Shown here one piece after another: positions 760 to 6,780 of a stretch of DNA of 64,000 bases (position 1 is the first letter of the stretch; each line of letters opens with the position of its first letter). The position numbers were made by a program, and so were the translations under genes. The notes under the pieces were generated by a model. That model did no database searches, was not told where the DNA came from, and saw only the letters and a list, made by a program, of their open reading frames with translations. This DNA is from Lama glama (taxonomy: Eukaryota), in assembly GCA_028534125.1 (NCBI GenBank), contig CM052816.1:21144001-21208000 (forward strand). Reading direction: 5' to 3'.

Positions 760-1241
760 GAGTCCTTATAAAGCAAAGATATAAATCATGGCCAAGTCAG
801 GGTAAACGTATCTGGAGAGACGGCCCCCTTTTGCAGGGGCAGGCAGGGTACTTGGGACTTGAAGTGCTGCACATGTTCCTGGTATGAGCCTGGGAAGCTG
901 GGAGAACCTGGCCAGCTCTGGCAGGTGGAACAGTGAGAACTTGCCTGTCAGCACCAGCAAGGCTGACCCCTGGCCTCGTACTCCAGCTGTCTGATGAGCT
1001 AATCCAGCCCTTGATGGAGAAGGAAGAAAAACCAAGCTGCAGTATGAGCACTTACTCCTTCTCCCTGGTCTCAGGCCCAGGGTTGTGAGGGAGGCAGGGT
1101 TTTGATATGTCAGGACTACCCTTCCCTTTAGGGACCCCAACCTGTCTTTTTCCCCCCTCATTTTCTTCTAAAGACTCAGGAACATTTTCTCAGTTGCTCT
1201 TTCTGGGCTTTCTTCCTTTCTTGTTATAGGATCCATAAAGC

Positions 1242-1412
1242 CTAGACTAGAGAGGAGTCCAACCAAGAAGGGATCACCATTATGCTCCAAAGGGCATTGG
1301 GGTACGGACACAGAGGCTGGCAGGTGAAACAGAAAGTGCAGGAGGATGACTCAGAACTTGCCAGCTGCTGCTTTACTAGTTTCTTGCAGCGGTTCAGCTG
1401 CCAAATACTGAC
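1242..1412 (-). CDS. CCNI2: CCNI2 exon 6 coding part (VSIWQLNRCKKLVKQQLASSESSSCT... to TAG)
   Basis: aattacag| acceptor; first ~26 codons resemble the human last exon, then the frame departs and reads to TAG at 1244-1242. Confidence 0.7.
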   Translation of the reverse strand, partial: VSIWQLNRCKKLVKQQLASSESSSCTFCFTCQPLCPYPNALWSIMVIPSWLDSSLV

Positions 1413-2051
1413 CTGTAATTAAAACAGAACAGTGGTCCTTGAGGAGATCCATTCTACATTCTGAAGAATGAGTAACTGAGTGACAAAATGTTACCATGGA
1501 GCAATTCAGGAAGATCCAACCACCCAACTTAATAACATTAACACCACCATCTCAGGGACCTCCCTCTTCAACCTCAGTAAAACTGCTGTTAGTCTAACTG
1601 CATTCTGTCTTACCCTGTCCATCCTGAGCGATTCTGACCTCCCAGTGTCTACCTCATGGTACCCCAGTGCCTGGTACCAGATCGAGCGTCAGGGGTCTGA
1701 AATTTACATTCCCCAATATTACCCCCAGGGTTGCTTCCTCCTGAGCTAGACATGTCCCTGCATCCTCTTGCCTACAAGGACTGCCACTGAGATAAAGCTT
1801 CTCTCACTGTCAGAGAAACCCACTCCAACTGGTCTGGTGAAGGTAATCTGTGTCTCATACCCAAGCCCAGACAGCGTGCCATGTGTGGAAAGCCTAGCCC
1901 CGAGGAAGACTCTGTTCAGAGTCATGATGGCCAGACCATCCTCTGGAGCCCACAAGGGCAAAGAAGGGCCATGGGTGCCCTTTTGGGGTCAGAGTGCATC
2001 AGCTAAAGGGGCAAAACTGAGAGCCTGGTCAAGGGCAAAGTTGATTTCTAC

Positions 2052-2282
2052 CTGTGCTTTCTTTAGCAGATCAGATATAGGAGTACAGCAGTCGGGCATG
2101 AGCCTCTCCAACTCTAAGGTGATGATGACCAAGGCCAGTGTGGAGCCCTTGAACTGCAGCAGCTGGTGGCCCGCCATACAGTGCTGCAGCTGCCTGGTCA
2201 GGGACGCGACGTGGAGGGAAGGATTCCTCTGAGGCAGCAGCTCCTTCACATGGGGCCAGCCCAGGACCACCAGGCCGTGGAA
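2052..2282 (-). CDS. CCNI2: CCNI2 exon 5 ([19 protein letters not shown]...DLLKKAQ)
   Basis: ctccag| acceptor, CAG|gtagaa donor, 231 nt; near-identical to remembered human protein. Confidence 0.9.
2067..2232 (+). CDS. SEPTIN8: Septin-8 alternative terminal coding exon (upstream exons lie before the window)
   Basis: Acceptor tgtgctttctttag|C AGA TCA GAT; translation [54 protein letters not shown] (TGA 2230-2232) matches the remembered C-terminus of the long human SEPT8 isoform; synteny SEPT8-CCNI2-KIF3A. Confidence 0.9.
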
Positions 2283-3430
2283 CTGGAGACCGTGGTTTTT
2301 AACGTTAGAACAGAAAACCCCCTACTTTTCATTTATCAATGACCAAAAGTGCAAACAATTTAAAAATTTCCATCAGGGAACATCAAATGTTGTCCAGCCC
2401 TTTTCATTTCCATTCATGCCCCCACAAGGGGCTTGAGTCATGGCCTCACAAGGGGCTTAAAGCTTAATACCCACTCTGTGGCCAAGCTCAGTTTCAACCC
2501 TGGAGAGAAAAAGACAGTTTGTTTTGTAACATGGTCATTATGAGCCTAAAGTGCCCATGACAATGTTTCAATTCTGAAAAATAGAAGCCTACGATTCAAG
2601 ATTAAGGTAGCAGAAGAGTTACTTGTATCTGCTGGACATGAAAAGAAACTCTGCAACTTGGCAACAGTGACTAGTTTTCATGATACAGCCCTCAGTGATT
2701 TAATCTTCATGCTTCATAACAGACCAAAACCCCATGACATTTCCACATTGCATAATTTTGCCTTACTAACAGAATCATACCCTTAAGGATAACCATCATT
2801 CTCTAACTAAAACAAATACAAACTAATATGACATTTTTTAAGTGCCAGATCAATATATGGTCTAAAGCCTCAATAAGGATTGTGTGTAGGTGAAGAAAGA
2901 CAGCTAAGTGAATGTGTGTAAAGTGTAGCAAAAGCAGACAGATTTTTATGTACAGTATTCATAGAATGGAAAGTTACATATTTTTGCAGTGTGTATTTAA
3001 AAGAGAAACTCACCATAATAGTGCCGTCTAAAAATCTTTGTAAAGTTAATTTAATGTCCTTTAGAAGTGGGAGTCTGGTGGAACTGTGTTGGATTTAAGA
3101 TAAAATTACACTCTTCCGTATGTCGTGAGCCTGTGGGTCACCTCACTGTGATGCATGTGCAAGGATGTGTGCTTTGCCATCCTATGTTGTGAACAGCTGT
3201 TCCAAAGGCACAAATGAGTCCAGGGTAGGCTCTGGAAAGTCCTCATACTTACTATGACCAAGAAATCCAGCGGTGTCCCAATATAGTGGTCCCAGTGCAG
3301 TTTGTCCAAAATAGCCAGCTCCATCCTCAGCAGCTCATTCGGGGAATAGCCAGAGCCATAGTGCTTTATGAAGTCTTATATGCGTGGAATTAACTGTAAA
3401 AAGAAAATAAAGAGGCCAAAGCCCTACTCC
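2233..3430 (+). other. SEPTIN8: SEPTIN8 3'UTR with poly(A) signal AATAAA at 3406-3411
   Basis: Repeat-free AT-rich sequence after the stop; first AATAAA I found downstream is at 3406-3411, followed by GT/T-rich sequence; end position inferred. Confidence 0.65.
3253..3393 (-). CDS. CCNI2: CCNI2 exon 4 (LIPRI*DFIKHYGSGYSPNELLRMELAILDKLHWDHYIGTPLDFLVI), contains in-frame stop
   Basis: tttttacag| acceptor, ATA|gtaagt donor, 141 nt; codon 6 is TAA. Confidence 0.85.
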
Positions 3431-4833
3431 ATGTCATGGTAGCTTTTGTTTTCTTATCCCTGGGGGGGCTGGGCATCTATGACCCTAGTAGATTTGTCTT
3501 CTAGTGACCTGTCACTGAAGCTGCTTCTGAAAGAAAAACCAAACCAGATCTTGGCTATCTGTCAAGTCCCCAGGTACCTGTGACAATATGTAGTGAATGT
3601 CACATGGTCACCCTCTGCCAACAGGTCTTGCTCCCCAACTGTACTCCAGCTTATACCCGAAGGTGCCTTGGAGGCTGGGGCTGTGCCGTCTCCCCGATTC
3701 AGCTGTAAGAATGCACTCAAAGCTTTCCAGCTGTAGGCTCTACCCATTTCTGTTATCTTTTCCCTTGTCTTTGAGAAGAAGAGTAAGTAAGCCTTTGAGC
3801 TTCATGGTCTAAATTAGACAGATTCATTGATAAAACCTCTCATGGTTTTGGCAACACCATAGCTGCAAACACATTCCTTTCAGCCTTTATTTAAGGCAAT
3901 TCACTTCTGGAAAAACTATGACTTTTTCCCAGGGAGACTAATAAGGCTTGTCTATGAGTAAACATTCAAGTACCAAGTGCTTTGAAGGCTTGGTCCTACT
4001 TTTTTAGATAAAGTATTACTATAACCTCTAGAAATATTTCTTTCAAGGACTATTTTCTTGACTTTTAATTGGACAAAAGTATCTTGTGGGACAGAAATTA
4101 TACTCTAATAAACAGGGTTAAAATATTTTTTATTGACTGTTTGGAACTGCACACATAAGCAACTTTTTCAGGCACCCTTGGTTCCTGAGATCAGCCGAGG
4201 GAGTCCTTGTAGAAATGGTGGTGGTTCCACTATCCTGAAAGGGGAAGAGGTTGGAGGGATGGAGGAAGGGAGGTGTGGGAAGGATATTGGAAAAGAATCT
4301 TATACTAAACAGAAGCCCTAGTGCAACTGAGAAGTTCAAGCGAGCCTGAAGTACTTATGGGGGCTTCTCTTCCACCTGCTGCACATGGCCCTCATGCCCA
4401 TTTTGGAGAATGGTCCCAGAGTCCCTGAAGACCAGTTTCATTGATACAGCCAAGTCCTTAAGTCTCAAGCAACTTTCTTAGATGTAGTTTCTGAGGGGTG
4501 GCCATTAGGCCATATGGTTTGGAAGGCCTTTTCCTCTGCTTAGTGGGAGGTGGCATCTGGCATCAACCAATGAAACAACATATCATATCTGCCAGGATGT
4601 CAGGCCTCTGGCTTTGCTGGGCCAAGACCATTCAGCTGTGCTAATTCCTCATTTGTGGGGTGCCAGATTCTGGCAGTCCTTAGGAAGGAACAGCAGAGAT
4701 CCTGGATAGGTAATGAGTTTTCCAAAATGCCCATTCCCAAGAGCTCAGACCTTTCAGGAAACTTGAGTGCTCCCAGTGTTACACACCCTGATACTTCGAA
4801 AGCAGCTGAGAATGAACTTCCAGGGATGCATAC

Positions 4834-4908
4834 CTCCTCCTCTTCGTTAACTTTTGCAGCAAGTCTTAAGGAAGTAATTGTGACACAATGGAGTAAATGC
4901 TTTTTTAT
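4834..4908 (-). CDS. CCNI2: CCNI2 exon 3 (IKKHLLHCVTITSLRLAAKVNEEEE)
   Basis: ctgcag| acceptor, GAG|gtatgc donor, 75 nt; cyclin-box LAAK.EE motif. Confidence 0.9.
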
Positions 4909-5491
4909 CTGCAGTATGGAAGAAACACATTCAAGCAGAATATGAATGCCAGAAACTAACTATAAAGCATCTGTGTTTTTTTTAAGAACTTAAGTTTTTT
5001 CTTTTTAAATTTTTTAAAAAGACTGATTATATTTATCTATAAGAAAGTTAGTCCCAGTTTTAGATGTGACCAGTGATAACTTGGTTTCAGAACCACAGAT
5101 AACTGACTAGTCTAGTCCTTTGTGGGAGGACTGACTGAAGGTGGGAAATATGGCACTATCTCAGGCAACACACAGCTCCATCCTGGCCTTTCGCTGCACT
5201 GGACCAGTCCAGACAAGCACACCCCACCTCATCACATGGGGAGTCCTTTCCCAACTGTATCTTCTCATGCTCCCCAGATGGACCCCTGTCAGCCGCACAA
5301 CACTGAGCCAGACAGGCACAGTGGTAGGACATGGAGAGGTTGCAATTCCAGTTCTACCACTTGGAGCTATTTACATCGTTTATGAGCCTCAGTTTGAAAA
5401 TCTGGGATGGCTCACTTGTCAGGCAGCAATGGGAAACAGAGGTCAATTTCTGCGCCCAACATCTGTCACCATCCATCAGAGATCTCCCTAC

Positions 5492-5623
5492 CTTTACTGA
5501 AACCATGAGGCGACTGAAGATACTAAGAGCCAGGTTAAAAGTGGTCTGGGAGAAGTCAAAGATGTTCTCAATTCTCAGGAGCCATAACATGACTTCCTGG
5601 AAGGCGTCGCAGGTCTCCACTTG
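5492..5623 (-). CDS. CCNI2: CCNI2 exon 2 (QVETCDAFQEVMLWLL...LMVSVK)
   Basis: ctcttcttttcag| acceptor, AAG|gtaggg donor, 132 nt, phase 0-0. Confidence 0.85.
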
Positions 5624-5899
5624 CTGAAAAGAAGAGGTCGGGGAGGGCAGGGAGGGTCTCTGGTGGCTGGACTTGGTGCACCAGGGGCTCGACCCCCTGC
5701 TCAATGTGCCCAGAGGAGCTGTGAGAAGCGCCTTCGCCTTAAATCGCGGTCGGATAAAGTGCCTCTCTTGTCTAGCAGCTCCCTCAATTCAGACCCTTCT
5801 TCCCGCACCCATTGTTTTGGTCCTAAGCAAAGTTCCCCAATTCAAACAAGCCCTCGTCACAAGCACCTACTAGAGAAGTACCGTTTCAGTGAGAATCCC

Positions 5900-6780
5900 G
5901 GAGAGTGCCGCCTCTTGTCTCGTGCAGGGGACGCACCTGGGGAAGGTGCTGACTCCAGGGTGCGGCTCACCTGAGCCAGGGTGCAGGCGGAACCCGGCCG
6001 CGTCCGCACGGTGCGCGCGTGAGGACGGGGATGAACGTGCTCCTGGGAGGGCCCCGCGCGAGGACCGGGGCCTGGAGTTGGCCGCCCCGCCACAGGCGCG
6101 CCTCGCGGCCCAGGGCCTGCGTCAAGTGGGCGTCCAGCTGGCGCTCGTCCACAGCGCCTGCCCAGTCTTTCGGCTCCAGGAGGCACTGGCCTAGGTCGCG
6201 GGGCGGCGGGGGTGGCTTCCACATAGCGAGGGCTGGGACGGGGCGCGCAGCTTGCCGAGCCTGCGTTGCCCTCAACCTCGGTCCGGTCCCGGACGGTGCG
6301 GGGAGCCGGGCCGCTCCACGCTGGTACGCCTCCGGGAAACTTCGGCTCGCCGCGGGGAGAGACACTTCCCCCGGAGGCGGCGAGAGAAGACAGCGAAGGG
6401 CCGTTGCGTCCGGACTCTCGCCTGGACGCTGGACAGGTCCTACCTCCGAGGCCAATGTCTGCGGCGGGGGCTGCCCGCCGGAGGCCATGGCGGCGCCAGG
6501 TCCTGGGTCTGGGTCCCGGCTTAACCCGGCTTTTTCTAACCCAGCGCCCGGGACACACAGCTGGGGCTGCGCGGGGCGGGGCGGTCTCTGCGGGCCCACC
6601 CCGCAGCCCTGGCCCGGGCGCTGGGGGCTCGCTCCTCCTGGCCACTTGCTCGCGAGGTGAGGGGCACGCACCTGGGACGCGGCGGGACAGGGCACACAGG
6701 TGGGTGAAGGATCCCCCCTACTCGTCCGGCCACCGAGCGCCAACCCACTGAGCCCCTCTTCCCCACCCTAAGTCCGAGTC
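5900..6780. promoter_or_regulatory. CpG island / CCNI2 promoter-exon 1
   Basis: Very GC- and CpG-rich; GC boxes ggggcggggcgg at ~6573-6584. Confidence 0.8.
6072..6488 (-). CDS. CCNI2: CCNI2 exon 1 coding part (MASGGQPPP...EARLWRGGQLQ, 139 codons)
   Basis: ATG at 6488-6486 in gccgccATGG Kozak context; 3' boundary placed by protein homology and followed by GCCCCG rather than GT. Confidence 0.7.

Follow-up and report, generated by a model that had tools for sequence, protein, structure and literature searches.

The window analysed here is a 64,000-nucleotide stretch of Lama glama DNA (GenBank assembly GCA_028534125.1, contig CM052816.1, positions 21,144,001 to 21,208,000 of the forward strand; positions below are those of the window), in which CCNI2 and SEPTIN8 lie tail to tail, with the last coding exon of SEPTIN8 inside exon 5 of CCNI2 on the opposite strand. 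CCNI2 is a cyclin-I-like activator of CDK5. The exon map of CCNI2 was made by tblastn against the window with the CCNI2 proteins of goat, gray whale and rhino, read together with the raw sequence; six exons are matched in order on the minus strand, at 51–96% identity across the three orthologues, and the internal exons are all phase 0 and multiples of three (132, 75, 141 and 231 nt). The identities and coordinates of both genes given in an earlier note on this DNA, which was made from the letters alone, hold under tblastn and translation. The features are as follows.

6488 to 1242, minus strand: span of the CCNI2 gene, from the order of the tblastn exon matches.
6072..6488, minus strand: coding part of CCNI2 exon 1, with its ATG at 6488-6486 and open for 139 codons (tblastn at 51–60% identity; translation).
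6070..6071, minus strand: intron-1 donor, GC in place of GT, CAG/GCCCCG (sequence and orthologue models that read through).
5492..5623, minus strand: CCNI2 exon 2, 44 codons, start of the cyclin box (tblastn, alignment).
4834..4908, minus strand: CCNI2 exon 3, 25 codons, no camelid-specific change (tblastn, alignment).
3253..3393, minus strand: CCNI2 exon 4, 47 codons, end of the cyclin box, with camelid-specific changes K to stop, L to H and T to V (tblastn, alignment).
3376..3378, minus strand: premature stop TAA, codon 6 of exon 4 (orthologue alignment).
2052..2282, minus strand: CCNI2 exon 5, 77 codons, phase 0-0, one camelid-specific residue at codon 3 (tblastn, alignment).
1242..1412, minus strand: coding part of CCNI2 exon 6, ancestral stop lost, 38-codon extension to a TAG at 1244-1242 (tblastn, translation).
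2067..2232, plus strand: coding part of the SEPTIN8 alternative last exon ("10b"), phase-1 start, 54 full codons from 2068, TGA at 2230-2232 (translation, orthologue tails).

Protein relatives of the exon-5 peptide number 252, and the statements made here and below about the nearest proteins and about camelid entries come from the 120 listed among them. The top match is a Camelus ferus protein with 100% identity, and the nearest named proteins are cyclin-I2/CCNI2 of deer, whales, goat, pig and rhino at 96–97%. Pfam places Cyclin_N (PF00134) on residues 147-252 of the goat protein, and the cyclin box of the goat and whale orthologues, which score 66.8 and 62.7 bits, corresponds to exons 2-4; the piece of window exon 4 that follows the premature stop, scanned alone, scores 16.3 bits, below the 23-bit cut-off. 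Judged by these matches, the stretch is the camelid orthologue of CCNI2.

On the plus strand, the SEPTIN8 tail exon is preceded by an acceptor (ctttag, at 2066), and because the preceding septin exon ends ~9 kb upstream it is placed as an alternative last exon inside CCNI2. The upstream SEPTIN8 exons, 7–11.6 kb left of the window, are 98–100% identical to Camelus septin-8 and differ by one residue (A vs T) from the sequence common to four Camelus taxa, pointing to a camelid probably outside the genus Camelus. The tail itself, which forms the C-terminus of the long septin-8 isoforms, is 100% identical to Camelus and odontocete septin-8 tails, and a tail-bearing isoform (X3) is annotated in Camelus RefSeq. 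In mouse, Sept8 exon 10b encodes two adjacent palmitoylated cysteines with nearby arginines that form a filopodia-inducing motif, on which dendritic branching and spines depend (Yuan et al., 2018, Genome Biol, PMC6092797). The window exon at 2067-2232 encodes the same tail and, like exon 10b of SEPT8-X1 in that study, is an alternative last exon; it carries the adjacent cysteines (..IQCCSC..) and the nearby arginines (LVR, WRE) that define the motif. By analogy a palmitoylated, filopodia-inducing tail is predicted for camelid septin-8, its function having been tested in mouse neurons. Unlike the present description, the accessible part of the SEPT8-X1 study does not mention an antisense position relative to a CCNI2 exon. 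A 39-residue core of the tail is unchanged in 10 of the 17 placental sequences compared, mouse, hamster and gerbil keeping 38/39, 36/39 and 37/39 of its residues, and the tail can still be recognised at 63–76% identity in birds, a monotreme and teleosts.

The phase of the overlap is the property on which the interpretation of exon 5 depends. Across the overlap, the first, second and third positions of a CCNI2 codon face septin positions 2, 1 and 3, and the wobble positions of the two frames therefore coincide. There are 495 possible point mutations in 2068-2232, and 375 change the CCNI2 peptide; only 34 of these 375 (9%) are silent for the septin, six of the 34 being transitions and three creating a CCNI2 stop. 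Because both frames share their wobble positions, selection on the septin blocks the remaining 341 of the 375 CCNI2-changing mutations. The final 15 bases of exon 5 (2066-2052) coincide with the septin acceptor and its pyrimidine tract. Both overlapping peptides are conserved and both frames are open, as in antisense dual-coding regions of the kind treated by OLGenie (PMC7531306), where opposite-strand proteins leave the synonymous sites of one constrained by the other; unlike most antisense overlaps described in the sources consulted, which are viral or prokaryotic, the present pair consists of two vertebrate nuclear genes, one of which is broken. A metagenome scan with the septin tail returned seven loci, of which six were chance-level matches at 38–41% and one was a true relative: a contig of 6611 bases (L017), host-derived and bird/sauropsid-like, with an intact set of CCNI2 exons 1-5 and the septin tail, again in antisense overlap. 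Its wobble-aligned phase follows from the coordinates, and both of its frames are open. From these sequences, the CCNI2/SEPTIN8 antisense overlap appears to be conserved at least across amniotes.

Against this background, the CCNI2 partner of the pair is damaged. The exon-4 stop claimed in the earlier note is present as TAA at 3378-3376, where 17 of 18 placental orthologues have K and the remaining one has R; it falls inside the Cyclin_N box and upstream of two further exon junctions. The lesion claimed for the exon-1 donor was also found, as GC at 6071-6070: in all seven orthologue gene models that read into intron 1 the intron begins with V (GTN), vs alanine (GCC) in the camelid. A GC donor in so poor a context would probably, though not certainly, mean loss of splicing at exon 1; because a weak in-frame GT lies 6 nt 3' of the mutated donor (window 6063-6066, minus strand), some residual splicing may persist, and this GT could serve as a cryptic donor that adds two residues. 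In exon 6 the frame departs as had been described. Laurasiatherian CCNI2 C-termini read ...LAS, LTS or LRS, then F or L, then stop, while the window continues LASSESSSC... for 38 more codons, with a TGA displaced from the frame by one base where the old stop would lie; the loss looks like a 1-nt deletion. This extension is common to the Camelus ferus protein EPY84927, and the change is graded as mild because CCNI2 C-termini vary in length among mammals, those of primates being longer.

Other parts of the original lesion list did not survive. At exon 2 the junction in the window reads LQ/QVETC (acceptor cag/CAA), the second AG of a tandem having been lost to read CAA, and the 3-nt shift of the acceptor had been counted as a lesion. 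Whale and bovid models, however, occur in both forms (LQQVE/LQQAE and LQVE/LQAE), and because entries with and without the extra Q are the signature of a tandem acceptor, the shift is ruled out as a lesion: the site used is the normal upstream one of the tandem, as in whales and bovids. Exons 1-5 are free of frameshifts, and every splice site but the exon-1 donor looks canonical. The statement that only exon 5 is pristine was accordingly too strong, since exon 3 also has no camelid-specific residue among its 25 and the other splice sites are normal.

Annotations of camelid CCNI2 are few among the listed relatives, comprising only a 151-aa model from C. ferus and a "Cyclin-I2" model from dromedary. 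RefSeq-style cyclin-I2 entries do occur for whales, bovids and rhino, and the database also includes Camelus RefSeq septin-8. The first of the two camelid models, EPY84927 from C. ferus, lacks exon 1, starts within exon 2 and omits exons 3 and 4, so that it consists of exons 2-5-6; it has no Pfam cyclin domain. The expectation that exon 5 could mislead annotators is thus borne out by a "hypothetical protein" built around that exon. The dromedary entry (P0061, 203 aa) derives from a processed retrocopy, to which an unrelated N-terminus is joined; it is the only dromedary protein named Cyclin-I2 among the listed matches, and is an annotation trap, as is EPY84927.

The llama genome carries such a processed CCNI2 retrocopy as well, on short unplaced contigs only (210–315 bases; L002-L014), in which exons 3-4-5 are joined intron-free and frameshifted; it is 5'-truncated in exon 3 and 86–88% identical to its parent. 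Contamination from another mammal was considered for the short contigs at 88–91% and rejected, as exons 3-4-5 are joined in them without introns and they match dromedary P0061. Two SNPs occur in these contigs in all four combinations, a pattern resembling bubbles in the assembly graph. The retrocopy keeps AAA at the site of the premature stop and the ancestral L and T at the sites of the other two camelid exon-4 changes, and all three changes therefore arose in the parent after retroposition. Searches of the own genome with exons 2, 4, 5 and 6 found only the window locus and retrocopy fragments and no intact CCNI2 paralogue, in an assembly whose fragmentation keeps this from being exhaustive; no second contig with the parent form of exon 4 occurs in the assembly. 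An exact scan of genome contigs with the 27 bases adjoining the stop gave 0 matches. A protein search with the exon-4 open reading frame (ORF) among proteins of similar length returned 10 proteins, 0 of them camelid, and is uninformative on the TAA in Camelus.

These observations, all of them read from assembled sequence, make it most likely that CCNI2 here is a unitary pseudogene, or at least a loss-of-function allele in this assembly. It is like other unitary pseudogenes in its syntenic position, premature stop and splice-site change, and in having only a dead retrocopy elsewhere in the genome; it is unlike a typical one in that exons 2-4, outside the shielded exon, show no significant relaxation of constraint, and its fixation is presumed. 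That CCNI2 is a fixed pseudogene in camelids is rather likely; camelid-wide fixation and sharing of the lesions are something we infer, the exon-6 stop loss alone being seen in C. ferus.

The reading that we favour, and regard as probable, is that CCNI2 is a unitary pseudogene whose exon 5 is shielded by the overlapping septin exon. The exon-4 TAA would cut the protein inside the cyclin box, in a gene that also has a GC intron-1 donor and has lost its normal stop. Exon 5 would be, at the same time, the antisense strand of the coding part of the SEPTIN8 alternative last exon, which specifies the cysteine-rich palmitoylated filopodia-inducing tail. Since positions 1 and 2 of a CCNI2 codon pair with positions 2 and 1 of a septin codon, purifying selection acting on the septin peptide would fix the first two bases of each overlapped CCNI2 codon, and the CCNI2 reading of exon 5 would stay open and almost unchanged whether CCNI2 is functional or not. 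The wobble-aligned phase, the functional tail in mouse and the retention of the tail in rodents reported to lack CCNI2 (below) together mean that septin selection is enough to hold exon 5 open and nearly unchanged once CCNI2 has died. The proposal that exon 5 is kept by antisense septin selection is in this respect upheld as to mechanism (phase, and a conserved functional tail); the separation of the two constraints, which the same proposal claimed, is not visible in the window.

That exon 5 is nearly identical to its orthologues is confirmed: 1–2 of its 77 residues differ from ruminants, whales and pig, and 7 of 77 from mangabey. The sole camelid-specific residue, A to G at codon 3, is among the 17 codons that are not overlapped, and the overlapped core (QRNPSL...LELERL) is near-invariant in 18 placentals, the exceptions being two residues in one mole. 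Lineage-unique residues were counted by exon for the camelid and for pig, which has an intact CCNI2 on a branch of similar age.

Camelid: exon 2, 4/44; exon 3, 0/25; exon 4, 3/47; exon 5 non-overlapped, 1/17; exon 5 other, 0/60; exon 6, 2/19.
Pig: exon 2, 3/44; exon 3, 2/25; exon 4, 3/47; exon 5 non-overlapped, 1/17; exon 5 other, 0/60; exon 6, 3/12.

Within exon 5, the contrast between the overlapped and non-overlapped parts that the earlier note had asked for has the expected direction (0/60 vs 1/17) and falls short of significance (p=0.22); the contrast between exons 2-4 and the exon-5 overlap behaves in the same way (7/116 vs 0/60, p=0.10).

Several results weigh against shielding of a dead gene and are given together here. 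The exon-5 overlap has 0/60 lineage-specific residues in pig, in the ruminant group and in the whale group alike, all with intact CCNI2, and unique states in exons 2-4 are about as numerous in pig (8/116) as in the camelid (7/116). Relative-rate counts in exons 2-4, made against seven intact artiodactyls with a perissodactyl and a carnivore as outgroup, give window-unique to other-unique ratios of 5:3, 4:1, 6:3, 6:2, 5:1 and 5:3 for ruminants and whales and 6:7 for pig, and none of the seven comparisons is significant. The window and C. ferus differ at 0/77 residues in exon 5 and at 6/74 in exons 2 and 6 (Fisher p=0.012), which speaks for shielding, but a like contrast is seen between cow and goat, with intact CCNI2 (0/77 in exon 5, 6/135 elsewhere). 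Parent and retrocopy differ at 27/208 DNA positions in exons 3-4 and at 15/189 in exon 5 (p=0.14), and when replacements are polarised by orthologue residues the parent-to-retrocopy counts are ~3:14 in exons 3-4, a ratio of ~0.2, and 0:9 in exon 5 (p=0.53). All of these comparisons are at the residue level or, for the retrocopy, also at the DNA level, and those at the residue level are without synonymous-rate normalisation. The TAA is, moreover, the sole unambiguous lesion in a gene whose exons 1-5 carry no frameshift and whose splice sites other than the exon-1 donor are intact, and both the fixation of the TAA and its sharing with Camelus rest on missing annotations. All tests lean in the predicted direction, and none separates a dead from a live CCNI2. 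Because the overlap is equally invariant where CCNI2 is intact, and exons 2-4 show no significant excess, the window alone does not separate the two constraints; the natural experiment that the earlier note had seen in this locus is not visible in it.

The strongest alternative, which we consider unlikely but deserving of attention, is that CCNI2 still works and that both genes conserve exon 5. The TAA, and perhaps the GC donor, would then be an assembly error or a private allele, or would be bypassed through the GC or a cryptic donor or through in-frame skipping of exon 4 (141 nt). Conservation of exons 2-4 at the level of intact relatives, the absence of frameshifts in exons 1-5, the intact remaining splice sites, the internal exons that are all multiples of three and the in-frame GT 6 nt beyond the donor are each what a working gene would show. 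However, the listed relatives include no full-length camelid cyclin-I2 protein, even though the database contains Camelus RefSeq septin-8, the C. ferus model avoids exons 1, 3 and 4, and the own genome offers no alternative contig for the parent exon 4; a protein made by skipping exon 4 would lack the last part of the Pfam cyclin box, and the lost stop is common to C. ferus.

A second alternative accepts that CCNI2 is dead and holds that exon 5 is pristine because little time has passed on a slow camelid branch, with no need of current selection. It agrees with the small number of changes overall (none specific to camelids among the 25 residues of exon 3) and with the two non-significant contrasts given above, within exon 5 and between exons 2-4 and the overlap. 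It agrees poorly with the differences from C. ferus, which are confined to exons 2 and 6 in the comparison with exon 5, with the neutral retrocopy, which has changed at ~8–10 of 64 exon-5 codons while its parent has changed at none, and with the septin tail, which is functional and is kept in CCNI2-less rodents. We therefore hold short elapsed time to be quite improbable as the explanation, and infer that septin selection accounts for exon 5 on the camelid branch. A residual product of the CCNI2 strand (e.g., an exon 2-5-6 protein) or a regulatory antisense RNA of SEPTIN8 as the reason for the conservation of exon 5 is very improbable: EPY84927 is a model of just this kind, and neither the CpG-rich 5' region nor the 139-codon exon-1 ORF has been disrupted, but EPY84927 lacks a Pfam cyclin domain and has the look of a work-around by the gene predictor, and an RNA role would not need an open frame.

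If shielding of a dead CCNI2 by the septin exon is correct, the camelid case has a counterpart in rodents. Mouse and rat are reported to lack the CCNI2 gene (Liu et al., 2017, Sci Rep, PMC5256034). As is probable for camelids, the same gene has there been lost in a mammalian lineage while the SEPTIN8 tail was kept, the cores of mouse, hamster and gerbil being 36–38/39 identical; unlike in camelids, where the gene can still be recognised along its whole length and has one to three lesions, the report, in its accessible part, describes genomic absence, with no relic. A literature search on the CCNI2/SEPTIN8 overlap or on camelid CCNI2 loss returned only gene lists from genome-wide association studies (GWAS). 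Already in print are the loss of CCNI2 in mouse and rat, the function of the septin tail and the general idea of constraint between overlapping genes. Should the loss hold, camelids would join mouse and rat as a second mammalian lineage that does without this CDK5 activator, and one in which the gene was broken recently enough for the loss to be dated. The locus illustrates how one exon of a dead gene can go on looking alive because of an overlapping gene, by which annotation has already been misled.

A broader history can be suggested tentatively. The septin-8 tail would have arisen by overprinting of the antisense strand of a CCNI2 exon, in wobble-aligned phase and at least as early as the amniote ancestor; the two peptides would then have frozen each other, until CCNI2 died independently in muroid rodents and in camelids, each time leaving an open "ghost" exon and releasing those septin sites that only CCNI2 had pinned. 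The septin tails of teleosts hint at an origin earlier than amniotes. In the hamster and gerbil septin tails (compared tails P0190, P0194, P0133) the changes correspond to A to V, M to R/K and V to A in the CCNI2 frame; those of mouse, Pipistrellus and mouse-lemur have changes only at CCNI2-silent sites. The rodent tails hint at a fit, as far as sequence can tell, with an ancient, mutually freezing pair that has repeatedly lost one partner. The tails of naked mole-rat and Sturnira, however, also carry CCNI2-changing differences. With multi-species DNA, a wobble-aligned pair with repeated loss of one partner could let the two constraints be separated, and if the overprinting history is true the pair would be a rare vertebrate system for measuring reciprocal constraint between two overlapping proteins.

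Three Logan ORFs (P0057, P0064 and P0065) read through exon 5, with the 17 non-overlapped codons heavily changed or missing and the overlapped part nearly intact. They may be ghost exons of other CCNI2-less species; an origin from CCNI2-less rodents was considered and dropped, as the frame length does not fit the mouse tail.

On the SEPTIN8 side, the region 3' of the tail exon holds one further feature, from a scan for poly(A) signals.

2233..3430, plus strand: putative SEPTIN8 3' untranslated region (UTR).

The first AATAAA 3' of the SEPTIN8 stop is at 3406-3411 (plus strand), just beyond CCNI2 exon 4, and because it lies past that exon, exon 4 would be contained within the septin mRNA, in its 3' UTR. 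The same AATAAA is the reverse complement of the pyrimidine tract of the CCNI2 intron-3 acceptor. An exon-like block at 1229-1323 (plus strand), bounded by ttgttatag/ and /gtgaaa and with stops in all frames looked at, could belong to SEPTIN8 as an alternative exon, either non-coding or UTR.

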